Source: Pseudomonadota bacterium (GTDB taxonomy: Bacteria; UBA10199; 2-02-FULL-44-16; JBDRGF01). From it: a stretch of 64,000 bases of DNA. Below are positions 43,522 through 64,000 of the stretch, one piece after another (positions within the stretch are counted from its first letter, which is position 1; each line of letters opens with the position of its first letter). Both the position numbers and the translations under genes were made by a program. The notes under the pieces are model-generated. The model saw nothing but the letters and a program-made list of their open reading frames with translations. It ran no database searches and was not told the origin of the DNA. The stretch is taken from the NCBI GenBank assembly GCA_043818055.1, contig JBDRGF010000033.1, positions 1 through 64,000 of the forward strand. The letters run 5' to 3'.

Positions 43522-44364
43522 ATGTCAAACGGAAAATTGTTTCTAACACCAGCGGAGGTACACAAAGCGGTATGCGATGTAGGTGCGGTCAAGACACAGT
43601 TATCAGCCTTTAAGATGATTCTGCTTGGAATTCTGGCCGGCGTCTATATCGGCTTCGGAGCGCATCTTTGTACCACAGTTGTAACAGGGATTGCACCCTT
43701 GGTCGGTTTTGGCATCACAAAGTTTTTGGGCGGCGCGGTATTTAGCGTAGGCCTGATGCTTGTCGTCATCGCCGGTTCCGAGCTCTTCACAGGCAACTGC
43801 ATGATTCCTTCAGCATGTTGCCACGGCCACGCAAAGTGGAGCCACATGATGAAGAACTGGACACTGGTATTTGTGGGGAACCTTTTAGGTTCGCTTCTTT
43901 TGGTCATCATCATCTACAACACAGGGCTCACATCAAATGATACAGTCGGAGTGACAGCGTTAAAAATCGCTTATAGCAAGGTTCATCTTGATTTCTGGCC
44001 TGCACTCTTCAGAGGTATTTGCTGTAACTGGTTGGTGTGTCTGGCTGTTGTTATTGCAACTTCAGCTCAATCCGTCGCCGGCAAGGTATGGGGCATCTTT
44101 TTCCCGATCATGGCCTTCGTCGCTTCCGGTTTCGAACATAGCATTGCCAACATGTACTTCATCCCGGCTGGCATTCTTGCCAAGGGAACAGCAGCTGGCG
44201 CAGCGTTCGTAACAGCCAACAGCGGCGCTGATCTGTCAACTCTCAACTGGGTAAGCATGTGGGATAATATCATTCCGGTAACCATCGGAAACATCATCGG
44301 CGGAGCGTTCTTCGTCGGCATGTGGTACTGGTACATCTACATGAGAGATACAAAGAAGGCTTAA
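43522..44364 (+). CDS. Formate/nitrite transporter (FocA/FdhC family)
   Basis: GSELFTGN, CNWLVC, GFEHSIANM, GNIIGG. Confidence 0.95.
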   Translation: MSNGKLFLTPAEVHKAVCDVGAVKTQLSAFKMILLGILAGVYIGFGAHLCTTVVTGIAPLVGFGITKFLGGAVFSVGLMLVVIAGSELFTGNCMIPSACCHGHAKWSHMMKNWTLVFVGNLLGSLLLVIIIYNTGLTSNDTVGVTALKIAYSKVHLDFWPALFRGICCNWLVCLAVVIATSAQSVAGKVWGIFFPIMAFVASGFEHSIANMYFIPAGILAKGTAAGAAFVTANSGADLSTLNWVSMWDNIIPVTIGNIIGGAFFVGMWYWYIYMRDTKKA

Positions 44365-44387: not shown

Positions 44388-44421
44388 AAGACCCTCTTGG
44401 AGCAATCCAGGAGGGTTTTTT
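44388..44421 (+). terminator. Rho-independent terminator
   Basis: accctcttgga-gcaa-tccaggagggt followed by T-tract. Confidence 0.8.
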
Positions 44422-44496
44422 GCTTATATGTCGGCTTTAAATTCTACTTGGAAATTAATGTAACATTTTTGATACATATGTACCAAAAATGTTACA

Positions 44497-45345
44497 TTAT
44501 CTTTGCCCGATATATTGAAAATCGTCACTTATACAAATTTCAGGAAGGTATGTTGCTCGGATTATCCTTTGTGGAATTTTTTGATCAAACAGTTGAAGCA
44601 AATATTTGAGAGTTCCTGCTATTCCGTGTTTATATTTATTGGCTTTCAAAATAATATCGTTATATTCAATTCCAATTGAAAAGCCTCGTTGGTGAATAAT
44701 CTCGTTATCTCTGTATCTCTGTAAAACTTTAAAATCCTCCCAAAATCTTTGACTTTTATCAAAAACAATTCCTGTGAATTTGGGAATCCAAAAGTCAATT
44801 TTATCATCAAAACCTACTTTCATCTCTTTTGAATCATTCAGGTTGTCATTTGGATAATTATCATTCCAAATTTGTGCTTTTTCATTGATAAACGCTTCAA
44901 TGCTTGCAACGCCAAATACTATCGCTGTTTGTATATCCTGAATTATTCCTATTTCAATTCCTGTGTAAAGTCTTGAGAGCGAATAATTAAAAGAATGCAT
45001 ATAAGGACTAAAAGCAATGATGCCCGGGGCTTCAATTGTTTGTCCGATCTCTTGTTTTGGTAGTAATGTTTTGCCGTTAAATTTTCCGAGTTCACAAGCA
45101 GCTGAGAAACTTCCACCTAGAACATCTTCTACTAATGGTACACCTTCGTGAAAATTCCTACATTTCTCGACTGTTTTATTAAATATTTCTCCAGAATATC
45201 CCTGGTCTATATACAGTTGAATGACATCATCGATATCACCAAACTTTTCAGGATCGTCACTTTGAGCTAATTCCAGAATTAATTGTTTTGTTGCATTGAC
45301 TGACATTTTTTTAAAAGAAATTTTGTCATACAATAATTTTAACAC
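44497..45345 (-). CDS. Hypothetical protein, possible C-terminal HEPN domain
   Basis: ASIEAFINE and YRDNEIIH (RxxxxxH). Confidence 0.55.
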   Translation of the reverse strand: MLKLLYDKISFKKMSVNATKQLILELAQSDDPEKFGDIDDVIQLYIDQGYSGEIFNKTVEKCRNFHEGVPLVEDVLGGSFSAACELGKFNGKTLLPKQEIGQTIEAPGIIAFSPYMHSFNYSLSRLYTGIEIGIIQDIQTAIVFGVASIEAFINEKAQIWNDNYPNDNLNDSKEMKVGFDDKIDFWIPKFTGIVFDKSQRFWEDFKVLQRYRDNEIIHQRGFSIGIEYNDIILKANKYKHGIAGTLKYLLQLFDQKIPQRIIRATYLPEICISDDFQYIGQR

Positions 45346-45438
45346 ACCATTTACTGCTTAACACTTATAACTTATATCAGCTCAACACCATACACATCGA
45401 CTCGTTAGTAAGTCACCAAAAATTCTAAAAGCACCAAA

Positions 45439-46638
45439 TTATTTTACAACAAATGTAACTTGACTACTTATACTCTTTAGCAACATGTTCAACTCCAGAT
45501 AACCATCTGTTTTTAAAATAAAATAACCAAATCTAGACGTAAGATCTACAAACTTTTTAACATAATCCCCTTTACTAACTCCTATATTCCACTCTACGAC
45601 TTTAGGATTGTTTAGTACTTCCAAATTTTTAATTTCTAGTAGTTGCCCTGACTTCGATGAAGTAAAATTATTAATGGCAGAAAGATACCTACTATTAACA
45701 TTTAAATTTACATGGCCATTAGTTAATACGTTAAGGTATGCTTCATAAAAATTAAACTGGTAGCTATTTGTTATCAAATCTGGCAATAGACTCCCTGGTA
45801 AACGCCCTGCGCATTCAACCAGAATAATTTTGTCATCTTGTAACATCCATTCAGCATGTAGCACTCCATTTTCTACTTCAAGTGCTTTCGCAAGTCTTGT
45901 TTGATTCTCAATAATTTTAGCTCTTTGTAAGGAATTGAGATCTTTAGGTACTATGCGAATTTGCTTCGTTGAATAATCTGTGACATTTAGAAATATTATT
46001 TCTTTATTCTTTACCAAACATTCTACACTTACCTCATTACCTTCAATAAACTCTTCAACCATGAATTCCCATTTTATCGGACGATCAACAACTAATGGTT
46101 CTGTGGCATTAACTGTTAAATTAAATGTTTTCTCAATGTCATTTGGTGAGGAGATTTTATTAACACCAATACTCCCATCACGATTAGCCGGTTTAAAAAT
46201 GACGGGAACATCCTCGAAAAAATCCTTCAATTCCTCAAGAGATTCAATTTTTTTAAACAAAGGAGAATTAATCCCTGCCTTCAAACACAGCTCACGCAAT
46301 GTTAATTTATTCGTTAAGCATTGAGCGGCTTTCTCCCCCAATCTTGGCAATCCCAATAATTCAGCAGCTCGGCTTGCTGCGAGCACTCCAGCTTCACGTG
46401 CCGCGACAACACCAGAAAATTTGACTTGTGCACTCCACTCTTTAACAACACTCAAATATTCTTCACTCTGATGATATTTCGCTAATTTCAGACCCTTTAT
46501 TGATGCAAACGCGTATTTCGATTTATCGTCTTTTAGATAAACGTCCTCTTCCTCAATTAAATATACGTTTATTTTAACGTTACTTTTTTCAAGGGCTCGA
46601 ATAAAATATCTTTGGCGACCAATCATTAATATATTCAC
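45439..46638 (-). CDS. ATP-grasp ligase (L-amino-acid ligase-like)
   Basis: NK..LR, PVIFKP..GSIGV, VEEFIEGNEVSVE, LHAEW, VECAGR.PG. Confidence 0.9.
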   Translation of the reverse strand: MNILMIGRQRYFIRALEKSNVKINVYLIEEEDVYLKDDKSKYAFASIKGLKLAKYHQSEEYLSVVKEWSAQVKFSGVVAAREAGVLAASRAAELLGLPRLGEKAAQCLTNKLTLRELCLKAGINSPLFKKIESLEELKDFFEDVPVIFKPANRDGSIGVNKISSPNDIEKTFNLTVNATEPLVVDRPIKWEFMVEEFIEGNEVSVECLVKNKEIIFLNVTDYSTKQIRIVPKDLNSLQRAKIIENQTRLAKALEVENGVLHAEWMLQDDKIILVECAGRLPGSLLPDLITNSYQFNFYEAYLNVLTNGHVNLNVNSRYLSAINNFTSSKSGQLLEIKNLEVLNNPKVVEWNIGVSKGDYVKKFVDLTSRFGYFILKTDGYLELNMLLKSISSQVTFVVK

Positions 46639-48620
46639 TCTTTCCCTCCTAATTTGATTTCTTTCATAAGATGATCATAACCTTTTCTAATATTAGATAA
46701 TATTTCATTTAAATCCTCACGCAGAGGTTTTTGCGACAAATTTAATTTTCCATAAATAAATTCAGAGCAGGCTGGCACAAAGAGAAAGAGAATCCCAAGA
46801 AGATATTTCACAGCACGTTGAAGTATAATTTTTTCCCCATTTTCTAACTGCAAATCTTTTTCAAGCCAGACTCTTGGAATTGTTTTTCTTACAAGTGTCT
46901 CCACAACCAAGCGAGATTTAACATATTCAAACCGAGCTAAATGCTGGTCAATTTTATTAAGAACACCCACCAAATCAGTTACAACTTGCTTCAACAGCTT
47001 TTCATCGCCCCCCCCATTGATAAGTGTCTCGCCTTCGGCCATTGATGCAGACAAAATTAATTCAATGAAGTTATTGAGTTTCTTAGTCACATTATTGCCT
47101 AGTCTCAATTCAGCCTCAACTAAGGTACGATCTCGTCCAAGAGCAGTACCCAATGCCCACCATCTCACATTATCAGTCGAATACATATTAATATAAGGCG
47201 TAATATTTCCTGGCGAAAGAACTCTTTCTTTAAATGAATTACCATCTCCTTGTAAGTAACCATGAGAAACTATTATATCAGGTTTCAAAACCCAATCAAT
47301 CAAAGTGGAAAGAACAATTGTGCTATAATGCCAGCATTTTGCGCTTGCCAAACGATGAATCCTCACAATTTTCGATGGCACCTTTTTTAGCCTGCTGGCA
47401 ACTAAAGTGGCTGACATCGCTGCAACAAACATCGTATCCAAAACCATTATCTTCCCGTCCTCATTCTTATTGTCATTATTCCATACAATGTCACCATTTC
47501 CTAAAAATCCAAATGGACTCAAAACTCCAAATTTTCTAGATCTCGTAATGGGCCAATCATCACCTGTATCTGTCAAAAATTGGTGTAATATATTCAATCC
47601 CGTTTTGGGGTACCATTCAATTGATTGAGCGCTTGCCTTTATATCATTTATTTTATCTCGCAACTTAACAGTTACAGTAGGTTCGGAAGAGATTAACACC
47701 GTGTCATTACAGGTTTTATGTTTAGTCAGAAGCATGGAAATTTCCATCGTATCAGTAGAAATTTTCGGTAAAGGTATCTTTTGGAGCACTGATCGCGAAT
47801 AAATACTTATGCCAAGTTTCTTCATAGCTTTTTTGTGCAATGAGAAATACCAAGGTGATAGTTCGGGCCCAACTAGTACATATGAGTTGTTGGGAAAATT
47901 AGGCAAATAGGCTTTCAATACAGGAATCCTCGCATTGTTTATGACAAGAGGTTCCATTAAAGACATTTCTTTCATTGGTGATGAAACGGTTTGAATAAGA
48001 CAAGAAAAATATGAATCTTTTTTTTCTTCAGGTATGATCAGCTCAAAGCGTTTCCCCGAAACAGTTAGAGTATATTTGTTAATTACTCTTTTCTCATGGA
48101 TCTCATATAGCTGATGATGCAATACCTCTTTTCCACAACTTGGGCATCTCAATGAGTAACGAACGCCAGAATATATCAACCCTTTTTCCATTAATTCTTT
48201 ACATACATTATATGCTAAAATTTGAGTTTCCGACTGCACTGATGCATATTCATGGGACCAATGAGGAACATATCCTAAGCGTAAAAATTGTTTTTTTATC
48301 AATTTGATTCGATCCGCAACCTCATCATTGCACTGCTGCACATCGCCATCAAGAAGGTTTTCCAGCTCAATACTGTGACAGTCAAACCCCTGTGGCAACA
48401 AAACAGATATACCTTTTGATTCTAACCATAATGAATACGTCTCAGCTAAAACATGTGGAATAGCGTGATGAAGATGCAAAAACCGATCGGTGTATGGCGG
48501 TGGAGTGTCAATCAATACATCAACAGGCTCAAGCAAACTTCTATGGACGTTCTCCCACCGTTTTTGAGCATAGGCTTCGACATCAGACAAAATGATAGAT
48601 TTATTTGTTGAATAAAGCAT
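46635..48620 (-). CDS. Divergent valyl-tRNA synthetase paralog (class Ia), HIGH degenerate, KMSKS absent
   Basis: IDTPPPY...LHLHH, PQGFDCH, DWPITRSRKFGV, VLDT, Y.TD.VRWWAL..LG.D. Confidence 0.8.
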   Translation of the reverse strand: MLYSTNKSIILSDVEAYAQKRWENVHRSLLEPVDVLIDTPPPYTDRFLHLHHAIPHVLAETYSLWLESKGISVLLPQGFDCHSIELENLLDGDVQQCNDEVADRIKLIKKQFLRLGYVPHWSHEYASVQSETQILAYNVCKELMEKGLIYSGVRYSLRCPSCGKEVLHHQLYEIHEKRVINKYTLTVSGKRFELIIPEEKKDSYFSCLIQTVSSPMKEMSLMEPLVINNARIPVLKAYLPNFPNNSYVLVGPELSPWYFSLHKKAMKKLGISIYSRSVLQKIPLPKISTDTMEISMLLTKHKTCNDTVLISSEPTVTVKLRDKINDIKASAQSIEWYPKTGLNILHQFLTDTGDDWPITRSRKFGVLSPFGFLGNGDIVWNNDNKNEDGKIMVLDTMFVAAMSATLVASRLKKVPSKIVRIHRLASAKCWHYSTIVLSTLIDWVLKPDIIVSHGYLQGDGNSFKERVLSPGNITPYINMYSTDNVRWWALGTALGRDRTLVEAELRLGNNVTKKLNNFIELILSASMAEGETLINGGGDEKLLKQVVTDLVGVLNKIDQHLARFEYVKSRLVVETLVRKTIPRVWLEKDLQLENGEKIILQRAVKYLLGILFLFVPACSEFIYGKLNLSQKPLREDLNEILSNIRKGYDHLMKEIKLGGKE

Positions 48621-50025
48621 AGGGTAATTCAGTTTTATCCATGTAATTCATTTTTTTATCCAGCTGTGTCAAATCCTTATCTAATCCTTGCCAACGCCAT
48701 GAATACACCCTCATAAAATCCTCTTCTGAATTAACTATTTTCGGAAGAATTTTAGAAAGAGCAAACATCTGCTTATAGCTAAAATCAAAGGAGGGATTTA
48801 TTTTCAGGTGATCCCATTCAAGGTTAGAATCAGCCAAGGAGATGGAGGTACCATATTTTTTTTCATAATGCTTCAAGTTTCTGAATATTTCAGCTCCGGG
48901 AAAGGCATATAACGCACTACAGGTCAGAAAACCGATCTTCTTTTTGTTCTTCAAAATAAATTCGATTGTCTTCGATAAGGTTTCAGGAGTTTCTCCGATA
49001 TAGCCAATGATGAAGTTGCACCACAACTTGACCCCATTCTCATAAAAAAGATCTATTAATTCTTGGGACCTACACAAGTATTCTTTTGGATTTCGTGTCT
49101 TATTCATCCGCAACAGGATCTCTTCGCTCGCAGATTCCACCCCAAAATACACGCTGGTTATGTCCAGTTGTTTTAGATACTCGATCCATTTTTCATAATT
49201 AATATCACATCTTGTATACGCTTGAATAAGCAATTTATCCTTATGCGGAATAAGGTTTTCTAATAACTTCAACGTATTGCTCTCATCCATTCCAAATGTT
49301 GAGCATCCAATATTAACAAACAATTTTTCTTCATTATAGAGTTTATAAACTTCCAGAATCTCTGCAATAACATTCTGCCATTTTTTAATTTTAATTTTTT
49401 GCTTTGAGTCACTGTTAACGCAAAAATTGCATCGAAATGGACACCCCCTACTCTCCTCAACAGTAGGAATTTTTTGTGAATAGTTATTTAACAACTTATA
49501 GTTCAATGATCCCAGCTGTTCGAATGACAAAGATTTAGGAGGATTTACAACAATTTTATTGTTCGATTTATACACCAAACCAGGTGAATTTAAATAATCA
49601 GAGTCAGGAAAATTCCTTATCAGGTGCAATACTGTGGACTCGCCTTCATCGAAACACGCATACTTCAACTCTGGAATTTGGCTAAAAACATTCTCCCTCA
49701 ATCCGATGACATGCTGCCCGCCAACGATAACAAGCGTCTCTTTGAAATCGCTAAGTGCCTTAACCGCCGTCATCAAAGAACCATAGGAAAAGGATGAAGT
49801 ACAATTGATCGCTATAATCTTTACTGTATTGTTTTTCACAAAATCCAGGAGCTCACTCAAAAAGTTCTTTTCATGTTGGAAATCGAGTAGTTTAACCTTG
49901 TAACCATTATTGTATACGTAACTCGCAATAGATAGTATCCCAACGTTGATATTATTCTTTGTGTGCTTTGGATAATTCGTTTCCACAAGAGGATCGATAA
50001 TTACCAAATCATATACTTCACTCAT
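48601..50025 (-). CDS. B12-binding-domain radical SAM enzyme
   Basis: GILSIASY, IVGGQH, EGE, SRGCPFRCNFC, GVESAS, FIIGYIGET. Confidence 0.9.
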   Translation of the reverse strand: MSEVYDLVIIDPLVETNYPKHTKNNINVGILSIASYVYNNGYKVKLLDFQHEKNFLSELLDFVKNNTVKIIAINCTSSFSYGSLMTAVKALSDFKETLVIVGGQHVIGLRENVFSQIPELKYACFDEGESTVLHLIRNFPDSDYLNSPGLVYKSNNKIVVNPPKSLSFEQLGSLNYKLLNNYSQKIPTVEESRGCPFRCNFCVNSDSKQKIKIKKWQNVIAEILEVYKLYNEEKLFVNIGCSTFGMDESNTLKLLENLIPHKDKLLIQAYTRCDINYEKWIEYLKQLDITSVYFGVESASEEILLRMNKTRNPKEYLCRSQELIDLFYENGVKLWCNFIIGYIGETPETLSKTIEFILKNKKKIGFLTCSALYAFPGAEIFRNLKHYEKKYGTSISLADSNLEWDHLKINPSFDFSYKQMFALSKILPKIVNSEEDFMRVYSWRWQGLDKDLTQLDKKMNYMDKTELPYALFNK

Positions 50026-50041
50026 AAAACCCTCGTTTCAA

Positions 50042-51154
50042 TTAATGTTGTTCAACATCATCAGAAGCTCCGCCATAGCAATCGTTGTTGTAGTTATATT
50101 TCATAATAGGACAAAGTGGTATAATGACATTTTCCTCACATCTCGGATCTTTGATATTGATTTTATCCTTAAGCAGTTTTGCATATCCGATGCATCCACC
50201 ACCACACAAATTCCAGTGTCGACAATCACCACACTCTGATTTGATATACGACCTGTTTAATTGCTTCCAATTGGAATCGTCACCAATGATATCTTTGAGT
50301 GCGTATTGATTGACATTACCGAGAACAATCGGAACATCGAGCCCAAAAACGCATGGATAAACATTACCATCGCAACGTATCATTATGTATGTCCTCGTTT
50401 TAAATATTTGACTACATCCACCACCACAACCACTAAACTCAGAAATATCGATATTGGGAGTTTCTTTCCATTTCATATACGCAGGCTCAATAATGATATC
50501 CACATCACCTATTCTCTTATTCTTTCTTTTTTCAAGGATCCGTTTTGAAATTTGTTCATATCCATTTAGATACTCTTCAGGTAAGATCCAAAGATCGGGA
50601 TATTTGGCTCCCCGCCCTATCGCTGAAAAATAAAACCCAGAAACACACCTAACCCCCAAATTGCTCAGTTTTTCGACCAAGCCCGGGAAAGTAAAAAGTG
50701 TCTTCTTATTTAAAACGGCGTTAACTCTAACCTTCCAATTTAGATTCAGTGCAACCGCAATAGCCTGCATTGCCTTTTCATAAGCACCTTTACCACGGAT
50801 ATAATCGTTAATTTCTTTGTCTGATGAATCAATGCTGATCATGATTGATTGAAGCCCTAATTCTGAAAGCTCTTCTGCATATTTCTGGCTGAGCAAAACG
50901 CCGTTTGTTTGAAGGCGCACCTCAATGTTCAAATCTTTACAGTAAGCAAGAACGATTTTCAGATCTTCTCTCAACAAGGGCTCACCACCAGTTAAGTGTA
51001 TATGTTCCATTCCAAGCTCTTTGGCTTGATTAATGACATCTATAATTTGGTCAGTAGAAAGCTCAGGCAACTTCAGTTCATTCGATGAAAAACAACAAAC
51101 CTTACAGCTAAGATTACACCTATTAGTCATATGAAGATCGAGTTCTTTAAGCAT
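50042..51154 (-). CDS. Radical SAM/SPASM enzyme
   Basis: CNLSCKVC, TGGEPLL, DGNVYPC, CGDCRHWNLCGGGC, DPRC; start placed at ATG 51154 overlapping the upstream gene end. Confidence 0.92.
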   Translation of the reverse strand: MLKELDLHMTNRCNLSCKVCCFSSNELKLPELSTDQIIDVINQAKELGMEHIHLTGGEPLLREDLKIVLAYCKDLNIEVRLQTNGVLLSQKYAEELSELGLQSIMISIDSSDKEINDYIRGKGAYEKAMQAIAVALNLNWKVRVNAVLNKKTLFTFPGLVEKLSNLGVRCVSGFYFSAIGRGAKYPDLWILPEEYLNGYEQISKRILEKRKNKRIGDVDIIIEPAYMKWKETPNIDISEFSGCGGGCSQIFKTRTYIMIRCDGNVYPCVFGLDVPIVLGNVNQYALKDIIGDDSNWKQLNRSYIKSECGDCRHWNLCGGGCIGYAKLLKDKINIKDPRCEENVIIPLCPIMKYNYNNDCYGGASDDVEQH

Positions 51155-52145
51155 CGGTAATACCTTTTTTGTATGCCTCCGCAGCGATAAGACAAAGTGA
51201 ATCAACACCCAATCCACCTCTCTCTATAAAACTGCTCGCGGGACATCCCTTTTTGCAGTTGGTTGAAAAATCACAATTCAAACAAGCTGTATTTGCATTT
51301 TTTATTGCCTCAGAACGAAACGCTTTTAGCTTCGACCAGGACTCCTTGCCCAACTGACTCAAAAGAATGCAAGGTAAAAATTCTCCTTTTGCATCAAGGG
51401 CAAATATCGAGTTGCCAGCATCACATTCACAAAAGGGCATATTTGAAATGGTCCTCTTTGTGTTAATTGTCAAAGATGTATATTTCTTTCTGCAGTCATT
51501 AAGTATTTTACTTAATTGTGCTTGTGTTGTTGCATTGGCAAGAAAATTACTTTTAGTATTGTATGGCATCAAACCTAATAGCGTAACGGACTCAACACCC
51601 AACTGATGACACATTGCTATTGTTTCTGTGAGCGTGGCCATTGTTTCTTCAGTCAACACAGAGATGATATGAATCATCAATCCATTCTTAATTAGCAATT
51701 CTATTGCCTTGATTGTCTTACCCCAAGCCCCAATCTGTTTTCTGTGTTTATCGTGAACGCTTGCATTTGAGCTTTCCAGCGAAACAGAGATTTCACTTAA
51801 ATAAGATGCTAATATTTTTACATTCCCTTCATTCACCAATGTTGCATTCGTACAGATATCCACATTAAAATTTGACTGATGCAATCTTTGGATGAGTTCC
51901 TCCAACCAAGGTAGCAAAAGTGGTTCACCCCCTGAAAGAATGACGTCTTTAATTCCTTGTCTTTTCAGAAATGGAATTGTGTTAAGCGCGTCTTCATAAC
52001 TCCATTCAGCAACCGATTGCCCATAGCGGTGACATGTCGGACAGTTCAAATTACACCTTGTCGTAAGCTCCCAAAGCAATCGTCTATCCGTGCTTTTGTT
52101 TGGGCTGCGGAAACAACATATGCTGTTGTAATAGTTGTCTGTCAT
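51147..52145 (-). CDS. Radical SAM/SPASM enzyme
   Basis: CNLNCPTC, SGGEPLL, CDAG..GEFLPC, CLNCDFSTNCKKGC. Confidence 0.92.
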   Translation of the reverse strand: MTDNYYNSICCFRSPNKSTDRRLLWELTTRCNLNCPTCHRYGQSVAEWSYEDALNTIPFLKRQGIKDVILSGGEPLLLPWLEELIQRLHQSNFNVDICTNATLVNEGNVKILASYLSEISVSLESSNASVHDKHRKQIGAWGKTIKAIELLIKNGLMIHIISVLTEETMATLTETIAMCHQLGVESVTLLGLMPYNTKSNFLANATTQAQLSKILNDCRKKYTSLTINTKRTISNMPFCECDAGNSIFALDAKGEFLPCILLSQLGKESWSKLKAFRSEAIKNANTACLNCDFSTNCKKGCPASSFIERGGLGVDSLCLIAAEAYKKGITDA

Positions 52146-52155
52146 AGTAATTCCA

Positions 52156-53262
52156 TTAATATAAATGTGGATAAAAAATTAATGTTGGCAAATACCCATC
52201 ATGTATCGAAATCCGATTTGAAACATTCATGTCCTTTAACTCTGGTAATTCAGAAAGATCTACGTTGCTATTTTCACGAAACGGACAGTAAGGATCCCTT
52301 TCGGATAACGCGTTATAATAAAGTATTCTTCGATCCTTGACCCCTCCTTTACACGTTGTCTCAAATTCACACTCCTTGCACAATGCAGGCTTTACAGTTT
52401 CACGCAGTAATGCAAATTGCTGCCTCTCTCCAATTCGATCAAGAATCTGATTTTCAAGAATACTACCAGCTATCCAATCCCTTCCGACCAAATAGGTTGA
52501 CGGCGTGATATCGCCGGTTGGCAAAATTCTTAAACTTGAAACACCAGACATATCATCAGAAATTCGAGATTGTTTAAAAATACTTGAAAAGAGAGGATCT
52601 GAAAGTACAGCAACTTTGTAACGTTTCATTATCCATGAAAGAGCTTTATAGACTGTCTTTGAAGAAGGGGGAGATAACCGATTATTCGTAGGACGAAATA
52701 GATTAATGCGCACCATGGCATTGTGCTGTGATGCTACATCAAAAATCCCTTTTAAATTTTCTTTGGTGAGGGTATCCTCAATTCCAATCATTACTATCGT
52801 GCTTTTAATATTAGCTTGTGTGCAAAAATCTAAAGTTCCAATCGCCCACTCAAAAGCGCTTTCATGTCCTCTTATTTTATTGTGTTTGTTTGGATTTGAG
52901 TAGTCAAGAGATACATCAATTTCATTTATACATCTGCTCACTAGATTTTGATAGAATGAGTCATTTTTCACGACTTCAAACAAATAACCATTTGTTGTAA
53001 GTGCCTGTAATATATTAGGAAAATACTTACGCGCATAATCAATTAAATCGAACCAAATTGGAGTTAGAGCATTTTCTCCTGTGCCGTAGTTTATTGAATC
53101 AATATAATTGTGATTATTAGAAATAAAATTTCGTAATGTATCTAAATTAAGAGTATCCTTACCTTCTCGCGCATCAATGCTGTAACAAAATGAACATCTC
53201 ATGTTACATGCTTTTGTGATTCCCCATCCAATTTGCCATTTAGTTCCCAACTGACAATTCAT
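52156..53262 (-). CDS. Radical SAM enzyme with degenerate SPASM domain
   Basis: CNMRCSFC, GTGEN, GDITPS, CKECEFETTCKGGV, DPYCP. Confidence 0.9.
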   Translation of the reverse strand: MNCQLGTKWQIGWGITKACNMRCSFCYSIDAREGKDTLNLDTLRNFISNNHNYIDSINYGTGENALTPIWFDLIDYARKYFPNILQALTTNGYLFEVVKNDSFYQNLVSRCINEIDVSLDYSNPNKHNKIRGHESAFEWAIGTLDFCTQANIKSTIVMIGIEDTLTKENLKGIFDVASQHNAMVRINLFRPTNNRLSPPSSKTVYKALSWIMKRYKVAVLSDPLFSSIFKQSRISDDMSGVSSLRILPTGDITPSTYLVGRDWIAGSILENQILDRIGERQQFALLRETVKPALCKECEFETTCKGGVKDRRILYYNALSERDPYCPFRENSNVDLSELPELKDMNVSNRISIHDGYLPTLIFYPHLY

Positions 53263-53318
53263 AATTACTTACCCCAAATATTATTTTGTAACAGATAAAT
53301 CAATCAACCTTAAACACT

Positions 53319-53334
53319 CGCAAAAATTATGCCA
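53319..53334 (-). promoter_or_regulatory. sigma54 (-24/-12) promoter upstream of the radical SAM operon
   Basis: Minus strand TGGCATAATTTTTGCG, GG-N10-GC spacing, 56 nt before the ATG at 53262. Confidence 0.7.
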
Positions 53335-53407
53335 AAATGGTAAAAAACATAACCATTTGAAATTATACTTGTTTTTTTTAAAAATCGTTAATAACAATTA
53401 ATTATTT

Positions 53408-53445
53408 GTCCAAAAAATCGGACTCGAGAGTCCAGAAAATCAGAC
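53408..53445. promoter_or_regulatory. Tandem palindromic sites, candidate upstream activator sequences for a sigma54 activator
   Basis: gtccaaaaaatcggac (53408-53423) and gtccagaaaatcagac (53430-53445), 22-bp period. Confidence 0.55.
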
Positions 53446-53499
53446 ACTCCAGATCGAACGGTTATATCAAAGGATGGATTTTAATAAAAAATTAAACAA

Positions 53500-55008
53500 T
53501 TATATTTTCTTCCATTCTGTCTTTTGAGAAGTATCTCTAATCTCAATTCCTAAGTCTCGTAACATGTTGCGAATTCGATCCGCTTGTTTGAAGTTCTTTG
53601 TTTTGCGAGCTTCATTTCTCTCTGAAATGAGATTTTCAATTTTTCGGATGAAATTAGCATCCACCTCTTCGACTCCATAGTCAAAAATAACGCCTAGAAT
53701 GGAATCAAAAACTTTTAAAACCTGTAAACAAGTTTTAGCTTGTTCTTTTGAAAGCATACCAACTGAATTTATTTTTGTCACAAAATTAAAAACGTACGCC
53801 AAACTCCCTGATATATTTAAATTATCATTTAAAGAATCGACAAACCCAGTTTGTGCTTCACAGCAGATCTTAGAAATATTAACCTCAACATCCTCATGGA
53901 TCGAACCCTTCTCGTATGCAAGCAACTTGTCCCTCAATTCCACCAAACGGTTAATGTTGCTTTTCGCTTGGCCTAGCGAAGTTAATGTAAAATTCATAGT
54001 TTGAGCATAATGCGTTGTCATGAGTGCCCACCTGATTGCAAGAGGATGATGTCCCATATTGATTAGATCTCGAATTGTATAAAAATTACCCTTTGACTTA
54101 CTCATCTTTTCGCCATCCACAAGCAAGAACTTCGCGTGTATCCAGTAATTGACGAAAGGTGCACCATTAGCACACATGGATTGAGCTATTTCGCATTCAT
54201 GATGCGGAAACTTATTATCCTCTCCACCAGTATGAATATCGATCGTATCGCCTAGCAATTCCTTTATCATAGCCGAACATTCTATGTGCCAGCCTGGAAA
54301 ACCGACACCCAACTCAGTCTCCCACTTCATAATATGCGTGTCGTCCTTCTTCCAAAGTGCGAAATCATAAGGATTTCTTTTAATGGCGGACTTAATTTCA
54401 TCTATGCGCCCGCCAGCTCCCGTCTTTAAAGATTCCATGGTATTATTTGACAAACGACCGTATTCCTTAAATGAAGAAATATCAAAATAATATGCGCCAT
54501 CAGATGCCTTATACGCATAGCCCTTGTCGATAAGAGCTTTAATCATCTTAACCATTGTATCGATATGTTCAGTCGCTCTTGGAAAACTCATCGGCTTTTT
54601 AAGATTGAGGGCATTAAAATCTTCCTTGAATGCTTTGATATAAAAGTCAGCAACATCCCATGGAGACTTAAAATCAAGATCCTTATATCCCTCCTTGCGA
54701 CCAGCTTTTTTCGATTTCAGCTGATTTACAGCGAGAGTCATTTTATCCTCTCCGCCACCTTCAGGGAAATCATCGTTAGTCATGTGACCTACATCGGTTA
54801 TATTCATAACTTGCTGCACTTCATATCCGTTTTGCTCCAAAACTCTCCGAAGCAAATCAGCCATAAGAAAGGTTCTAAAATTACCGATGTGAGCATAGTC
54901 ATAGACTGTAGGACCACAATTATACATCTTAACAATAGGATGACTGATAGCTCTGAATGGAGTTAGGCTGTTTGTGAAACTATTATATAATGTCAGTTCC
55001 TTAGTCAT
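53500..55008 (-). CDS. cysS: Cysteine--tRNA ligase (full length, island-encoded)
   Basis: CGPTVY..AHIGN, DFALWK, PGWHIECS, HTGGED..FPHHE, KMSKS, K.F..AD.IR. Confidence 0.95.
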   Translation of the reverse strand: MTKELTLYNSFTNSLTPFRAISHPIVKMYNCGPTVYDYAHIGNFRTFLMADLLRRVLEQNGYEVQQVMNITDVGHMTNDDFPEGGGEDKMTLAVNQLKSKKAGRKEGYKDLDFKSPWDVADFYIKAFKEDFNALNLKKPMSFPRATEHIDTMVKMIKALIDKGYAYKASDGAYYFDISSFKEYGRLSNNTMESLKTGAGGRIDEIKSAIKRNPYDFALWKKDDTHIMKWETELGVGFPGWHIECSAMIKELLGDTIDIHTGGEDNKFPHHECEIAQSMCANGAPFVNYWIHAKFLLVDGEKMSKSKGNFYTIRDLINMGHHPLAIRWALMTTHYAQTMNFTLTSLGQAKSNINRLVELRDKLLAYEKGSIHEDVEVNISKICCEAQTGFVDSLNDNLNISGSLAYVFNFVTKINSVGMLSKEQAKTCLQVLKVFDSILGVIFDYGVEEVDANFIRKIENLISERNEARKTKNFKQADRIRNMLRDLGIEIRDTSQKTEWKKI

Positions 55009-55145
55009 AGTGTTTTAATAACTATAATGAAGTCCATGTGATTGTCTATATCAAAAATTTGTTTTTTATATGGTGGCTTGACAGAAAATAGAGAAACTGT
55101 CACTAATAAGCGCATATCCTTATTGGAAAGGGTTTTTAAAAAACT

Positions 55146-56324
55146 ATGAATTTTATATACACATTTTTGAAACCAGCTCAAAGCAATTTTGAATTGTTGA
55201 AGAAATGGAGTACCATTTCGATTTACAATCCAGAAAATCCCGTAGTAGTTAAAATCACAGTTCCTTTAGGCGAAGTCTTTCAGAAGAATCAATTTGTTTT
55301 AATTGGGAATTCTCTCACAGGAGAGTATAAAAAAGCGATTAGTTCAGCTGCTATCAAGGGATACGAACTGTTACGAAACTCAGCTGAACAAGCGATCAAG
55401 CTTAAAACTCACACAGAAGTTTCGGATCCACACGGACAAATTGTAAAAACCTTTGATGAAGCCGCCAAACTCATTATGGAGCAATTGACACTTTTAGAAA
55501 AAACGGAATCCACAGATGCATTTCAAATTATAATTCCGCTTCAATTAGATACTTCTATTCAATTTAAAAACATGACAAGTCTACAGATCAAAAAAATGCT
55601 AGAGGCTGGCTGGAAAAGTGTAATTGTGCCAAGTGGTGCAATTGAACAACATGGCCCCCACTTGCCAATGAACACTGATATCTATTTAGCAACGGTGCTT
55701 TCAAATTTAATAGCTCAGGAATTAGGAATGATGTTAGTCTCATATGGAATTGCTCCCGGATGCTCTGACAATCATCTTCCTTTTGCCGGCACGCTATCGT
55801 TGGACCAAGATACATTCAAATCTGTACTAAAGAGGATGACTCGCAATTTGATCTCTCATGGTTTCAAAGAAATCATACACTTTCCTTTCCATGGAGGTAA
55901 TTTTAATCCAACTCAAGAAGCAATTAGAGAGCTGAGAGCCGAATTTGAAACACAAAAAATCAAAATTATAGGCCCAAAACAAGGCAGTATGGACAAGAAA
56001 GACTTTTTTAATACCCTAGAATCTGCTTTGCATATACACTTTCCTGACAAACCTGATGACTGGCACGCAGGTTGTATTGAAACATCGATGATGCTATATG
56101 CTGATCCTTTTCTTGTAAGAAAGGAATTGGTCGAAGTTGGTTACACTGGAAAACCAATCCCGTCTGAAATTGTGAACCGAGAAGGTCTTAATAAGTATAC
56201 GGCTAACGGCATTTGGGGGGATCCAGTTGGATATAGCATAGAATTAGGTGCTTTAATCTTTCGAAAACTGATTGCCAGAGCTATCCAACATATAGAATCT
56301 GAAAGAAACAAAAACGTTACCTAG
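55146..56324 (+). CDS. Creatininase-family amidohydrolase with ~135-aa unknown N-terminal domain
   Basis: GAIEQHGPHLP..TD, S.NH..FAGTLSL, HGGN, DWHAG..ETS, NGIWGDP. Confidence 0.9.
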   Translation: MNFIYTFLKPAQSNFELLKKWSTISIYNPENPVVVKITVPLGEVFQKNQFVLIGNSLTGEYKKAISSAAIKGYELLRNSAEQAIKLKTHTEVSDPHGQIVKTFDEAAKLIMEQLTLLEKTESTDAFQIIIPLQLDTSIQFKNMTSLQIKKMLEAGWKSVIVPSGAIEQHGPHLPMNTDIYLATVLSNLIAQELGMMLVSYGIAPGCSDNHLPFAGTLSLDQDTFKSVLKRMTRNLISHGFKEIIHFPFHGGNFNPTQEAIRELRAEFETQKIKIIGPKQGSMDKKDFFNTLESALHIHFPDKPDDWHAGCIETSMMLYADPFLVRKELVEVGYTGKPIPSEIVNREGLNKYTANGIWGDPVGYSIELGALIFRKLIARAIQHIESERNKNVT

Positions 56325-56370
56325 TTACAAGCTATAACTTTTTTTTAAATTTAGCTAAGTTGAATATATC

Positions 56371-57639
56371 ATGATAAAGAAACTGTTATCGATTCCCACC
56401 TTATATAAAAAAGCTCCAAAGGAAATATACATTCTCGCTTTGTCTAGAATAATTAACAGCTCAGGCAATTTTGTTTATCCCTTTCTAGCCCTCTTTATTA
56501 CACAAAAATTACAGCTATCTGCGAAAACAGCGGGAACGGCTGTTCTTCTTGTTTCAATTGCTTCGATTCTTGGCACATTAGTTGGTGGGAAACTAACGGA
56601 TCATAGTCGGCTTGGTCGGAAAAAAATTATGATTATCGCACAATTCTTTTGTGCCATAAACTTAATTCTGTGTACTCAGTTCGCCCATTCATACATAATT
56701 TTATTCTTTATTTTTATTTCACATTTTTTCCATGGAATCTTTAGCCCAGCAAATAAAGCAATGGCAATAGACTTGACGGATAAAAACAATAGGTATCCTT
56801 CATTCTCCTTAATTTATTTGGGACATAATATAGGCTGTTCTATAGGACCTCTTTTAGCTGGTTTTCTATTTAAAAATTATATCATGTGGTTATTTATTGG
56901 AGACGCACTAACTACACTTATTTCAGCTTTAATCATTGCAATATTTCTACATGAAACGCGTCCATCAAACGAGAAGATAGAGTCGAGCTACACAAAACAA
57001 TCACAGGAACGAGCCGAACAAGGCAATGTCTTTGTCAGTTTATTTAAAAGACCCAACCTCTTGTTTTTTGTTGTATTACTTATCATTCTACAAATTGTTT
57101 ATTCTCAGCGACATTTTTCACTTCCATTGCAGTTAAATCTCATTTATGGAAATACTGAAGGTCCAATTCTTTTTGGAACTATGATGACAATAAATTCATT
57201 GTTTGTGATCGCTTTTACTACCATAATCACTTCATTCACAAACAAGTTCAATCCTCTTATAAATGAATCTATCGCTAGCATATTTTATGCTCTGGGATTC
57301 GGAATGATCATTTTCACCCACTCTATTCCGTTCTTCATAATTTCTACATCTCTATGGACAATTGGTGAAATTCTATATTCCACCAATTCTTCTGTTTATA
57401 TCGCTAACCACACTCCTATTTCACATAGAGGAAGATTTAATGCGATTATACCCTTAGCAATGTATGTTGGATATGGACTTGGTCCATTATTAATGGGAAA
57501 AGTTATCGAATTACATAATCTCCAATATGTATGGATATCAACTTTTCTCCTAGCATCATTCGCAGCTTTTGCATTATGGACATTGCACATCTTAGAAAAA
57601 ACAAAACTGCAAACTGTGTTTAATAATGTTTCCAATTGA
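56371..57639 (+). CDS. MFS transporter (efflux-like)
   Basis: About 12 hydrophobic segments; GGKLTD...GRKK motif A. Confidence 0.9.
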   Translation: MIKKLLSIPTLYKKAPKEIYILALSRIINSSGNFVYPFLALFITQKLQLSAKTAGTAVLLVSIASILGTLVGGKLTDHSRLGRKKIMIIAQFFCAINLILCTQFAHSYIILFFIFISHFFHGIFSPANKAMAIDLTDKNNRYPSFSLIYLGHNIGCSIGPLLAGFLFKNYIMWLFIGDALTTLISALIIAIFLHETRPSNEKIESSYTKQSQERAEQGNVFVSLFKRPNLLFFVVLLIILQIVYSQRHFSLPLQLNLIYGNTEGPILFGTMMTINSLFVIAFTTIITSFTNKFNPLINESIASIFYALGFGMIIFTHSIPFFIISTSLWTIGEILYSTNSSVYIANHTPISHRGRFNAIIPLAMYVGYGLGPLLMGKVIELHNLQYVWISTFLLASFAAFALWTLHILEKTKLQTVFNNVSN

Positions 57640-57682
57640 GAATGCAATTTTGCGATAATCTTTTAGAAAGAGTGAATTTTGT

Positions 57683-58879
57683 ATGAAAGAAAATATACTA
57701 ATTTTGAATAACGCCAGATATGAGCACTACTATAAGAATAAAAAACCAATTATTGACTATAATCGTTACAACGTTTTTTTTATAACAAAAAAAGAATACG
57801 CTGCTGAAATTCCAGATAATGATTACTCAGAACTTCACTCCATCAATATGAGTGACAGCGACGCTGTATTCGAATTAGCAAGAAATATTCATTTAAGGTA
57901 TTTTATCAATCGTGTCATTGCACTATCCGAAAGTAACATTTTGGATGCAGCACGAATTAGAGAATTTTGTGGGTGTAAAGGAATGCCATTTAACCAAGTG
58001 CTAATATTAAGAGATAAATGTTTAATGAAAGAATACCTCAGTGGTAAAGGAATTAACGTCCCTGCATTTAAAAAATTATACTCAACTCAGAATGCCATAG
58101 AGTTTTACCAATTATATGGTAGAGTTGTGATCAAACCTGCGTTAGGAATGGGATCAAAGAATACCTACATTATTGATACAGAGACTAAGTTCAACTTAGC
58201 GTTAAAATGTATTAATAATAGCATTCTTGATTACGAAATTGAGGAATTTGTTGATGGAGATATGTATCATTGCGATTCCATCATAGTGGATGGACATGTT
58301 AAACTATGTAGCGTTAGTAAATATCTTGATTCCACATGCGGTTATTTAGAGAGTCAACCACTTGCATCAGTTATGGAAGATGACGAAAACATCTGCTCTA
58401 GGTTACAGACTTTTAACAGCATGATTCTTAAAGCTTTCGGCATCAAAAATGATGTTACACATCTTGAGGTCTTCTATAAGGATTCTAATATCGTATTTTG
58501 TGAAATTGCAATAAGAACAGGAGGGGGAGGAATTATTGATTCAGTTGAGCAGAAATATTCAATCAATCTCATGGAAACCCATCTCAAACTCCAACTTTCA
58601 CAATGTGAAAAATTACAACTATGTAGCAGAGATCTTTACAGTGGATTTGTTATGTTTTATGCGAAACCAGGGATAGTAGTCAATATTACACCGGCCGATA
58701 AATTTAATCAGGAATGGATATCTAAATTTAAAGTCTACATCAAAAAAGGCGATCGAGTCATTTTACCAAAATATAATGGAAAACCAGCCGCCATAGTAAT
58801 CATCGTTGGAAAGACGAAAGACGATTTGATCAATAAAGTTGAATGGGTAAAAAGCAATTTCAGAATTAGCTACATTTAA
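57683..58879 (+). CDS. ATP-grasp ligase
   Basis: RDK..MK, VVIKP..GMGS, IEEFVDG..YHCDS, THLEVF, CEIAIR.GGG. Confidence 0.9.
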   Translation: MKENILILNNARYEHYYKNKKPIIDYNRYNVFFITKKEYAAEIPDNDYSELHSINMSDSDAVFELARNIHLRYFINRVIALSESNILDAARIREFCGCKGMPFNQVLILRDKCLMKEYLSGKGINVPAFKKLYSTQNAIEFYQLYGRVVIKPALGMGSKNTYIIDTETKFNLALKCINNSILDYEIEEFVDGDMYHCDSIIVDGHVKLCSVSKYLDSTCGYLESQPLASVMEDDENICSRLQTFNSMILKAFGIKNDVTHLEVFYKDSNIVFCEIAIRTGGGGIIDSVEQKYSINLMETHLKLQLSQCEKLQLCSRDLYSGFVMFYAKPGIVVNITPADKFNQEWISKFKVYIKKGDRVILPKYNGKPAAIVIIVGKTKDDLINKVEWVKSNFRISYI

Positions 58880-59017
58880 AAACATTTATTTGTTCTTTCA
58901 CCACTAGTACCGAATAAATTAAAAACAAGCGCTGTTTGAATCGATGACGGTGTGATATTCTGATGCTTGAAGCGGCGTTTAAAATCATAAGATTTCAATG
59001 TCAAATATTACCACTCA

Positions 59018-60058
59018 TCACCCCACCAGTTCAATTCTTTCACCCTCTGTCAACTCACCAAATGAATTTATCGCATGTTCAGCAAGCCCCATTTTTCTAG
59101 CAACTCTGATATATTCTTCCACATTTGAAGGATCGACTGCGACAAGCAATCCACCCGATGTCTGCGGGTCGGCTAAAATCTTTTGATTCTCCCCTGTGAG
59201 ACCTTCGACATGATGGCCATAGCTCCTAACATTTCGAAATGTTCCTCCGGGACAGCACTCTTTGTCGAGATAGTATTCAACTTCTTTAAGCAGAGGGACA
59301 TCATCAACTCTAATTACAGCTTTGAGCTTCGATCCTTGAGCCATTTCAAGGAGATGTCCCAAGAGTCCAAACCCGGTGACGTCGGTCATCGCGTGCACAC
59401 ATGATAGCTTTCCAAAGGCCTCACCTGCGCGATTCAATGCTGTCATTATCTCTACCGCTTTTCCTTCATCTGTCGGCTTTAGCACTCCGTGTTTTTGGGC
59501 GCTCGTGAGGATGCCTATACCAAGCGGCTTTGTGAGAAATAAAAGGTCCCCTGCCTTTGCGCCGTCATTTCTTTTTATATGGGCCTTTTTTATGGTGCCG
59601 TTCACGGCCAATCCAAATATCGGCTCAGGTGAATCAATGCTGTGTCCGCCGGCCAGCGGAATGTTCGCATCTTTGCAGACTTCGCTAGCCCCCCTCATCA
59701 CCTCCCTTGCAACATCGGGTGATAATTTATCTATCGGCCAGCCCAGGATCGATATCGCAAGGATCGGAGTCCCTCCCATCGCATACACGTCGCTGATCGA
59801 ATTCGTTGCAGCTACCCTGCCGAAATCGTATGGATCATCGACGATCGGCATGAAGAAATCGGTCGTACTGATCAGCGCCTCTCCGTTCCCCAGATCGACA
59901 ACGGCGGCATCATCCTTGCTCTCGTTGCCAACGATGAGATTTGGGAATTTCGTGTTGTTTTTCCCCTCTAAGATCTTCTCCAGCACATCAGGCGCGATCT
60001 TGCACCCGCACCCTGCCCCGTGGCTGTATTGTGTCAGTCGAACATTTTTTTTATCCAT
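59018..60058 (-). CDS. selD: Selenide, water dikinase (Cys-type)
   Basis: [40 protein letters not shown]; start placed at ATG 60058. Confidence 0.96.
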
Positions 60059-60169
60059 AACGTTTTCTACCTTTTTTCTCAAGACTGTTCGAAAATGCTG
60101 AGGGAGTTCACCCGCCTCAACTTCCCCGTTATGCAACGGGAGAAGCCTTGTCAAGAGAAGTGATTCTGA

Positions 60170-62473: not shown

Positions 62474-62600
62474 CCAATATCGGAGCTTTATTTGAGTCTC
62501 ATCTCTGAGATGATCATTAAACCTATCCCTCCAAATTAATTTTGAACTTAAATCGTTGTCTTTATTAAATAGTCTAAAAAGTTCATGCCATTTTTTAAAG

Positions 62601-64000
62601 TTAGTCCCAATCGATTTCTGCTTGGATTATCTTGATTATCTCTTCATCGCTAGGGTCTATCAGTTCAGACAATGAACTAATTGTGTCTATATCTAGCTTG
62701 TTTTTAAGCGAATTGAGCTTTTTAATAATTTCTTGATTGCTTGACACTATCTTCCAAGCAGCTCTGTAATAAACTTTAGTATCATCGAGCCTTTTGAGAA
62801 AATCCCGTCCAGACAGACCTTTTAAATAATCAATAAATATTAAAATAATATCTTCGTCTGGACACAAGAACGCGGCAGCGGGATTATTTTGTATAATGAT
62901 TCTTATTAGATGTTTTACTGCTTCTTTGACCTTCGAGTGTCCTGATTTGTATAGAATTGCTAGCTCGCTTAAATATTCTTCGAGGCCATAATAAAGCGAA
63001 GAAAGAAATTTAATATCTTCGTTCTTCTTTCGATTTCTATTAAACAGTCCTCTTATATCTGTTGGAGAGTGCTCTTCAGCACCAAAGGCGGTTTCAATCG
63101 AAAAGGGATATATGCTTCTTCTGTCATCTGTCAGCAGAAAATTCAAAGTTGTTGCATGCGTAGTTGCACTTGTGACCTTTGGTTCGGATACACTTACTCC
63201 ACCTGAAAATATTACAGAAAAACCAAGGTGTGCAAATATCTCCCTGGTGACTATTGCAAAACCATCACATTTAACCTTGTATTTTAATCTCCTCGTCTTT
63301 TTACATATTTTCGAGCAGTGTTTATGAATAAATTCTAAGAGAATGACTTGAGAATGCTCTCTTTCTCCTAGAAATTCTCCATATCTTTCAACAAAATTAT
63401 CTGCGTAATCTCTATTGTAGGCCAAGTCAAAATCATATTCGTACCAAGAGCCAACATGTTCAATCACCTCTTCTAGACATTCTCCTAATTGCAATGATCC
63501 TCTCAAAATTCTTGAATTCATGGCTTCTATAAATTTTCTCGTTGGTTCAGGCCACTCATCTAATTTTGAATCCGGGCGCGTCAATGACATCAGCTCTGGA
63601 GGATCACCCCAAAAAGCTCCCCAATAATTGAAGCCAGATGCCTCTCGCGGCACTTCGAGAATTTTAAATGAATAAAAAAGGTCTCTTTTCTCTGTCATCT
63701 CTGGAATTTCAATGAATGTTAGATGCTGGTATTTTGTCGGTCTGAAGTCCCAGCCTTGCAAACCTTCTATCCTTATCGTTTCAGGTTCTATTTGAGCGGC
63801 GAATGGCTGTGGCAACAGAATGCGCCTCTTTTCGCCCGCTTCAATTTGGATTTTTACGGTTACCCTTTTAGGTTCTACTCTAAACAATGACCACAATTCA
63901 TCCGGCGCATTGGGAAGCGAGGGGGATAATGCATTGTGAATCTCCTCGATTTTTTTGCATGCTGCCTCGAATTCCTCTTCTGTGCAGGAATCAGGTTTTT
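62601..64000 (-). CDS. Transglutaminase-like domain protein, 5' end beyond the window
   Basis: YEYD..VKCDGFA..THAT; the frame is open to the window end. Confidence 0.6.
   Translation of the reverse strand, partial: KPDSCTEEEFEAACKKIEEIHNALSPSLPNAPDELWSLFRVEPKRVTVKIQIEAGEKRRILLPQPFAAQIEPETIRIEGLQGWDFRPTKYQHLTFIEIPEMTEKRDLFYSFKILEVPREASGFNYWGAFWGDPPELMSLTRPDSKLDEWPEPTRKFIEAMNSRILRGSLQLGECLEEVIEHVGSWYEYDFDLAYNRDYADNFVERYGEFLGEREHSQVILLEFIHKHCSKICKKTRRLKYKVKCDGFAIVTREIFAHLGFSVIFSGGVSVSEPKVTSATTHATTLNFLLTDDRRSIYPFSIETAFGAEEHSPTDIRGLFNRNRKKNEDIKFLSSLYYGLEEYLSELAILYKSGHSKVKEAVKHLIRIIIQNNPAAAFLCPDEDIILIFIDYLKGLSGRDFLKRLDDTKVYYRAAWKIVSSNQEIIKKLNSLKNKLDIDTISSLSELIDPSDEEIIKIIQAEIDWD

Follow-up and report, generated by a model that had tools for sequence, protein, structure and literature searches.

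The window analysed here, the first 64,000 nucleotides of contig JBDRGF010000033.1 of a Pseudomonadota bacterium (GCA_043818055.1), encodes a 661-residue protein, P0001, which is derived from a valyl-tRNA synthetase (ValRS). P0001 is real, rare and under selection, and its replaced residues point to an active site that was remodelled under selection rather than left to decay. As read from the sequence, a transfer function is likely. The specific proposal, which draws also on analogy with AcmF, is an AcmF-like aminoacyl-tRNA-dependent transferase built on the ValRS scaffold, with the ATP motifs replaced and a donor that need not be valine, and we give it about an even chance. If the predicted function holds, P0001 adds a new scaffold to the synthetase-like transferases.

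46635..48620, minus strand: P0001, ValRS-derived protein of 661 residues with a shrunken editing domain and a degenerate anticodon domain (translation, profile matches, alignments and AlphaFold2 (AF2) model).

The open reading frame (ORF) has no internal stop. The original prediction, made from the letters of the window, had quoted a set of ValRS motifs for it without stating the strand; the ORF is real and the motifs are present (IDTPPP at residues 37-42, HLHH at 49-52, DWPITRSRKFG at 355-365, VLDT at 393-396, NSFKERVLSPGN at 461-472 and DNVRWWA at 483-489). P0001 matches Pfam PF00133 (E 8.5e-17), its top NCBIfam match is the ValRS model PRK13208, and its Atlas model agrees with ValRS clusters at template modelling (TM) scores of 0.78-0.79 across 609-627 residues, so the likeness to ValRS is not due to chance. 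Both curated ValRS cut-offs are missed (113 of 738 bits for PRK13208, and 72.5 of 612 bits). By the Atlas TM scores and the AF2 model, P0001 has the class Ia Rossmann fold, the stem-contact domain and the helical anticodon domain of a working ValRS. The AF2 model from a 68-row alignment reached a mean local confidence (pLDDT) of 86.4 and a predicted TM score (pTM) of 0.89, with pLDDT below 50 just at the N-terminus and at residues 464-469; because the rows were chiefly canonical synthetases, it indicates compatibility with the ValRS fold and is not independent proof. The model from a 2-row alignment reached a pLDDT of only 33. P0001 is shorter than a typical ValRS, as was pointed out earlier, but length alone is undiagnostic, because a ValRS of 679 residues (P0087) keeps intact HMGH and KEMHKS motifs.

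The P0001 type is rare. Relatives were sought among 1.84 billion representatives by a full HMMER scan, which gave 761 matches of which the best 150 were examined, and by two word-index searches, in which 8000 and 7999 candidates were scored. The sole relative in these sets is P0002, a protein of 706 residues that is 38% identical to P0001 and carries the same replacements. The next-best HMMER match is a compact canonical ValRS at 132 bits, the 30 best other profile matches are all IDTPPP-type ValRSs (archaeal type, the PRK13208 kind), and HxHH occurs in none of the 148 other matches among the best 150. In GTDB contigs 156 pattern matches were obtained and none was confirmed; the matches listed from JGI metagenomes (8 loci) all have KMSKS and include no family member. 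The family was not found in viral contigs, plasmids or 40 relatives, and the 92 other genomes of the phylum gave no match.

Motif columns were compared with 66 canonical rows (51 ValRSs and 15 isoleucyl-tRNA synthetases, IleRSs). The change of HIGH to HLHH and the replacement of KMSKS, on which the original prediction was built, are borne out by the alignment and recur in P0002. The third HIGH position is His in both proteins and Gly in 51 of 51 ValRS rows. At the KMSKS site, whose five positions are conserved in 46, 49, 51, 50 and 51 of the 51 ValRS rows, the gap-free alignment reads SFKER in P0001 and TFKER in P0002, with the second lysine changed to Glu. Pairwise HMMER and BLAST alignments place a 3-residue insertion there instead, and under either alignment P0001 has no KMSKS-like motif left. 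The GxD ribose motif reads RLA in P0001 and RIA in P0002. The losses go further than these ATP motifs and include the editing motifs, most anticodon residues and two pocket residues, which the earlier reading had missed. The editing motifs TTRPE and GTG of the connective peptide 1 (CP1) domain are gone from P0001 and the domain is shortened, and the majority of positions in the anticodon-domain signature (KLWN..RF, FxWxxFCDWY) are altered in both proteins. In the Pro/Trp/Ile/Trp set that we take, from the T. thermophilus structure, to line the valine pocket, Pro and W430 are retained, and the Trp and Ile found in 51 of 51 ValRS rows are replaced in both members by Met (M397) and Ser (S426), so the pocket is not that of a working ValRS.

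Other residues are unchanged in both P0001 and P0002, including P40-P42, H49, H52, D80, DW355-356, R360, D395 and W430, the stem-contact residues D483, R486 and D497, and the zinc site (CxxC plus HxxC). By comparison with ValRS and IleRS structures, the retained residues presumably serve the amino-group/PPP site, the acceptor stem and the stem contact. Among the 69 columns conserved in at least 90% of the canonical rows, 26 are kept in both proteins, 36 are lost in both and 7 are kept in one. At the sequence level P0001 thus has the transferase-type pattern, in which aminoacyl and tRNA 3'-end residues are kept and ATP residues have decayed. According to the accessible part of one study (PMC10485003), G/AXHH IleRS2 enzymes stay active with His as the third HIGH residue, but in IleRS1 this His abolishes activity. 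Since it is compatible with activity in IleRS2, loss of adenylation is argued from all the losses taken together. G/AXHH IleRS2 shares with P0001 the His at position 3; it differs in having Gly or Ala at position 1 and in still being active, whereas in P0001 positions 1, 3 and 4 are all His and KMSKS is absent (same part of PMC10485003). With His at position 1, P0001 does not belong to the IleRS2 type, which is defined by Gly/Ala there and by the IleRS2 clade.

The two catalytic Rossmann halves of P0001 and P0002 are 66% and 67% identical, above all of the 62 comparison ValRS pairs (means 42 and 45). In contrast, identity is 18% in CP1, the editing remnant, which is lower than in all 62 pairs, and 24% in the anticodon domain, which is equally low in 3 of them. 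At 30 positions the two proteins have in common a residue that is present in at most 3 of the 66 canonical rows. A selected, remodelled active site is proposed because the replacements are shared with P0002 and the catalytic halves are so much better conserved than the rest. Two points tell against this argument: the comparison pairs, which are those of 1275 ValRS pairs with 33-43% overall identity, are not independent, and once overall identity is fixed, regions of high identity have to be balanced by regions of low identity; and the conservation rests on one pair, because the family has two members. A related strain in sequencing run X8 shows 27 synonymous and 11 non-synonymous changes among 38 listed differences in four neighbouring genes (depth 2-4), a comparison that covers the neighbours of P0001 rather than P0001 itself and has at least 38 sites in its difference table. 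At 2-3x, the gap in X8 coverage over P0001 carries no information.

P0001 is a spare copy. A separate canonical valS is present on contig C79 (1131.5 bits against a cut-off of 612.1), and canonical ileS, leuS and cysS genes with normal motifs are also found in the genome, which is 93.6% complete. An extra synthetase-like copy therefore lies in a biosynthetic cluster with the housekeeping copy elsewhere. The earlier view that P0001 is not a translation enzyme is well supported by the canonical valS together with the replaced ATP, editing and anticodon signatures.

A ValRS origin is likely for P0001, and the archaeal type is probably its source, as judged from sequence. Residues shared by P0001 and P0002 match only the archaeal-type ValRS consensus in 14 columns, only the bacterial one in 12, both in 9 and only IleRS in 6. 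P0001 has the fold, domain order, IDTPPP start and zinc site of archaeal-type ValRS (PRK13208); it differs in being about 20% identical and in its replaced ATP, editing and anticodon signatures. In a first tree the best placement was beside IleRS at 53/60, the ValRS placements had p values of 0.36 and 0.27 in the approximately unbiased (AU) test, and no placement was rejected. In a second tree the pair lay outside the sampled IleRS group at 100/100, with no firm placement between that group and the two ValRS groups. The stem of the pair is very long (2.75-2.82 changes per column), and the trees neither settle the origin of the pair nor nest it within archaeal-type ValRS.

The gene lies in an imported, biosynthetic-type cassette, recognized by its low GC content and by a GC content at third codon positions (GC3) of 0.24-0.40, compared with 0.50-0.59 in four flanking genes. 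Its features are as follows.

44400..58950 (approximate), no strand: imported low-GC cassette, about 14.5 kb long, flanked by a formate/nitrite channel gene and by selD (GC 32-40% per kb).
44497..45345, minus strand: 282-residue ORF of no known family at the left cassette edge, membership uncertain, GC3 0.24.
45439..46638, minus strand: ATP-grasp 1, L-amino-acid-ligase type (ATP-grasp_4 + LAL_C2), overlapping the P0001 stop by 4 nt.
48601..50025, minus strand: B12-binding radical S-adenosylmethionine (SAM) enzyme of 474 residues, overlapping P0001 by 20 nt.
50042..51217, minus strand: radical SAM/SPASM enzyme 3, true start probably later, near the stop of radical SAM enzyme 2.
51147..52145, minus strand: radical SAM enzyme 2, whose tail is Cys-rich and SPASM-like.
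52156..53262, minus strand: radical SAM enzyme 1 (rSAM1), SPASM-type.
53500..55008, minus strand: second cysteinyl-tRNA synthetase (CysRS), intact, with HIGN, KMSKS and zinc-site Cys/His motifs (TIGR00435, 462.8 bits, cut-off 340).
55146..56324, plus strand: creatininase/MftE-like amidohydrolase with a 140-residue N-terminal extension.
56371..57639, plus strand: major facilitator superfamily (MFS) transporter, likely an exporter.
57683..58879, plus strand: ATP-grasp 2, L-amino-acid-ligase type, 24% identical to ATP-grasp 1.

The minus strand carries the CysRS, three SPASM-type radical SAM genes, the B12 enzyme, P0001 and ATP-grasp 1, and the plus strand the creatininase-like hydrolase, the transporter and ATP-grasp 2. 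Both overlaps of P0001 that had been claimed earlier, with the B12 gene upstream and the ATP-grasp gene downstream, are found. The best PDB matches of ATP-grasp 1 include L-amino acid ligases and BacD. The bacilysin (BacD) and dapdiamide (DdaF) pathways resemble the cassette in its ATP-grasp_4 + LAL_C2 ligases and transporter, and differ in that the cassette scores far under their family cut-offs; we know of no synthetase-like gene in those clusters. No precursor peptide, recognition element (RRE/PqqD) or PEARL family turned up among 14 proteins in a general family scan. The cluster CysRS is 32% identical to the housekeeping CysRS and at most 45% identical to proteins of the 93 phylum genomes among the matches listed; by sequence it is foreign to the phylum.

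The B12 enzyme reached no NCBIfam cut-off (best PhpK-type, 100 of 600 bits), and in the phylum only 1 of 93 genomes, its own, was matched. Among 42 matches from 7613 candidates it has five relatives at 53-56% identity, with which it forms a small subfamily, followed by a gap down to 34%. One of these orthologues, P0047, comes from the same source as P0002, with a longest contig of 10,369 in both, and the two probably share one contig. As seen by eye, the two partnered B12 enzymes have residues in common that are absent from the other four orthologues.

The transferase is favoured because the kept half of P0001 (aminoacyl group, tRNA end) and the lost half (ATP, editing, anticodon) reproduce the pattern of AcmF. 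In the part of a review that is accessible (PMC12945691), AcmF, the AlaRS-like protein of ascamycin biosynthesis, is without most ATP-binding residues, apparently makes no tRNA-identity selection and uses aminoacyl-tRNA from an intact cluster synthetase, which also gives resistance; the synthetase-like aminoacyl-tRNA transferases it treats are SbzA and AcmF, both from Streptomyces. The likeness consists in a synthetase scaffold without most ATP-binding residues and without tRNA-identity elements, accompanied by an extra intact synthetase and a hydrolase. AcmF differs in its class II fold, its cognate AcmD/AcmF pair and its nucleoside sulfamate acceptor, whereas P0001 has a class Ia ValRS fold and is found with a non-cognate CysRS, four radical SAM enzymes and two ATP-grasps. 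The original prediction had cited IleRS-like SbzA of the SB-203208 pathway. This is the weaker analogy, because SbzA retains both HIGH and KMSKS and remains a weak tRNA-charging enzyme (PMC6331615, accessible part), and AcmF, without most ATP-binding residues and beside an intact synthetase, fits better. SbzA is alike in being a class Ia scaffold put to use in a biosynthetic cluster, with a housekeeping copy also present (PMC12945691, same part); it differs in keeping HYGH, AMSKA, an editing domain and weak charging, whereas P0001 shows none of these signatures and does not group with the sampled IleRSs. The prediction of a tRNA-dependent transferase thus stands as the most likely function, with its choice of Val-tRNA as donor doubtful. 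No ValRS-derived biosynthetic enzyme or cluster with one was found in the literature, in which few subscription papers were covered. TmoS was considered as a ValRS-like precedent and rejected, as the accessible part of its report describes a methyltransferase (PMC9303977).

In the proposed mechanism, the aminoacyl end of a tRNA would bind the kept half-site of P0001, and the former ATP site, lined by conserved R46, H51, H56, H422, R423, K464 and R466, would bind a small, probably anionic acceptor. The acceptor would be made by the radical SAM enzymes of the cluster, and P0001 would move the amino acid onto it from the charged tRNA, with the loss of editing sparing the donor. The ATP-grasps may then add residues, the amidohydrolase trim and the MFS transporter export, giving a peptide-like antimetabolite, a product suggested by the ligases and the transporter. 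The donor may be Cys-tRNA from the cluster CysRS, with Val-tRNA or a relaxed donor equally open; the CysRS may also be a resistant target.

ValRS is known to misactivate cysteine. Cys-tRNA comes into view as a donor because the pocket is changed, the editing site is gone and the cluster has a CysRS of its own. In the fuller form of this idea, Cys-tRNA from the cassette CysRS would be captured by a ValRS scaffold that lacks editing and anticodon reading and has a widened polar pocket, and the cysteine would be transferred to the radical-SAM-built acceptor or held on the tRNA for methylation by the B12 enzyme. This version is quite unlikely. If such a cross-specific pair of CysRS and ValRS scaffold were true, tRNA would be the carrier of a new amino-acid-derived metabolite.

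Several observations weigh against a transferase. The weak anticodon domain equally fits no use of tRNA, the two ATP-grasp ligases could supply every amide bond so that no transferase is needed, and the intact cluster synthetase is a CysRS rather than a cognate ValRS (unlike the acm cluster), ValRS being present only as the housekeeping gene. The other four B12-enzyme orthologues (contigs 1.8-31.6 kb) have no detected P0001-family partner, which tells against an obligate link between the B12 enzyme and P0001. An alternative is a ligase that needs ATP but no tRNA and has a rebuilt nucleotide site; on the model of MshC, it would adenylate a non-standard acid made by the radical SAM enzymes and pass it to a small acceptor. 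This is unlikely, although H49 and H52 of HIGH are retained, K464 and R466 are conserved as new basic residues, and the anticodon domain is poorly conserved; the position-3 His is also tolerated in active G/AXHH IleRS2 (PMC10485003, accessible part). Such active variants have Gly or Ala at position 1, HxHH is absent from the 148 other matches mentioned above, the second KMSKS lysine is Glu, GxD reads RLA/RIA in both members, and the acceptor-stem and stem-contact residues are retained. No higher chance is given to a non-catalytic binder, either an adaptor that holds aminoacyl-tRNA or an intermediate for the B12 enzyme or a decoy that sequesters a toxic product. The gene overlap with the B12 gene, the probable co-location in the second locus and the residues shared by the two partnered B12 enzymes (by eye) would fit it, and a ligand pocket would be conserved too; but the 66-67% conservation with many shared new His and Arg residues fits a catalytic site at least equally, four B12 orthologues are without a detected partner, and P0001 sits mid-operon between two enzymes.

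A working, inhibitor-resistant ValRS kept as a self-resistance copy is highly improbable. Altered HIGH motifs lead to hyper-resistance in IleRS2 (PMC10485003, accessible part) and the full domain order is retained in P0001, but P0001 has lost KMSKS and the editing motifs along with two pocket residues and most of the anticodon residues, and its score is 113 bits against 738. The chance of a decaying pseudogene, an alternative raised in the original prediction, is close to negligible: the replacements common to P0001 and the 38%-identical P0002 count against it, as do the intact frame, the 30 positions with a shared residue that occurs in no more than 3 of the 66 canonical rows, the retained CxxC plus HxxC site and the 27 synonymous versus 11 non-synonymous changes at the listed sites of neighbouring genes, although the very long branch (2.75-2.82 changes per column) and the extreme rarity would suit decay. 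If the AcmF-like transferase is true, a ValRS-derived enzyme with a wholly rebuilt ATP site would show SbzA/AcmF chemistry on a new scaffold, here in an uncultured bacterium from groundwater, and the cassette would mark an undescribed pathway that combines four radical SAM enzymes with two peptide ligases. The additional CysRS would point to a candidate donor or drug target, and the P0001/P0002 pair would be a clean natural case of a repurposed class I active site.

For rSAM1, nothing was found in GTDB contigs. Its relatives at 24-27% identity are in small plasmid clusters, and 2 of 3 examined adjoin a weakly similar radical SAM gene of about 520 residues; rSAM1 retains CxxxCxxC and is missing several SPASM cysteines of these plasmid relatives. 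No synthetase-like gene was listed in six plasmid neighbourhoods of distant radical SAM relatives. A conserved radical SAM gene occurs on plasmids of Enterococcus, Streptomyces clavuligerus and Phaeobacter (L017 10350-17717, L018 10145-15238, L019 11890-21362) with varied partners (a second radical SAM, pyrophosphatase, adenylation domain, kinase, GNAT), which looks like another undescribed pathway family. A cassette of NTF2, radical SAM, PqqD and two radical SAM genes recurs on two marine plasmids (L021 11385-16060, L022 11398-15832). Among plasmids, the best relative of the B12 enzyme belongs to a methylase-helicase island of Nostoc, where its neighbours are an AAA/kinase gene on one side and a helicase on the other (L020 13312-20847).

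Within the cassette, the extension of the creatininase-like protein (window 55146-55565) had no usable Atlas match. Small ORFs occur in two intergenic gaps, and a 38-residue TTG-start ORF on the operon strand between CysRS and rSAM1 (window 53281-53397, minus strand) is probably noise. The cassette gave no match in Rfam and no tRNA, no repeat at its boundaries was convincing, and its counts of promoters and terminators did not exceed chance. A near-perfect 44-bp palindrome (22-nt arms, 95%, no loop) lies at the left cassette edge just past the 282-residue ORF (window 44456-44499). An RNA run covered 28 of 30 bins, which is no evidence of transcription because the coverage came as contigs and includes the flanks. 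Near-identical DNA is present in groundwater and biofilm metagenomes, and in one contig of run X2 an A-run of ATP-grasp 1 is longer by one A (window 46216), which may be an error.

The cassette interrupts an apparent formate-dehydrogenase/selenium locus, with the formate channel gene at window 43522-44364 and selD at 59018-60154. Beyond selD, G000:C33 65101-79900 carries dehydrogenase-like subunits, selB/selA-like genes, tRNA-Sec and molybdate/tungstate-type transport genes, the protein genes being labelled by eye from N-terminal sequence. A second low-GC insert past selD (window 60170-64000, continuing to C33:64862) has two large minus-strand ORFs, of which the first is without a significant Pfam match and the second is transglutaminase-like by eye.

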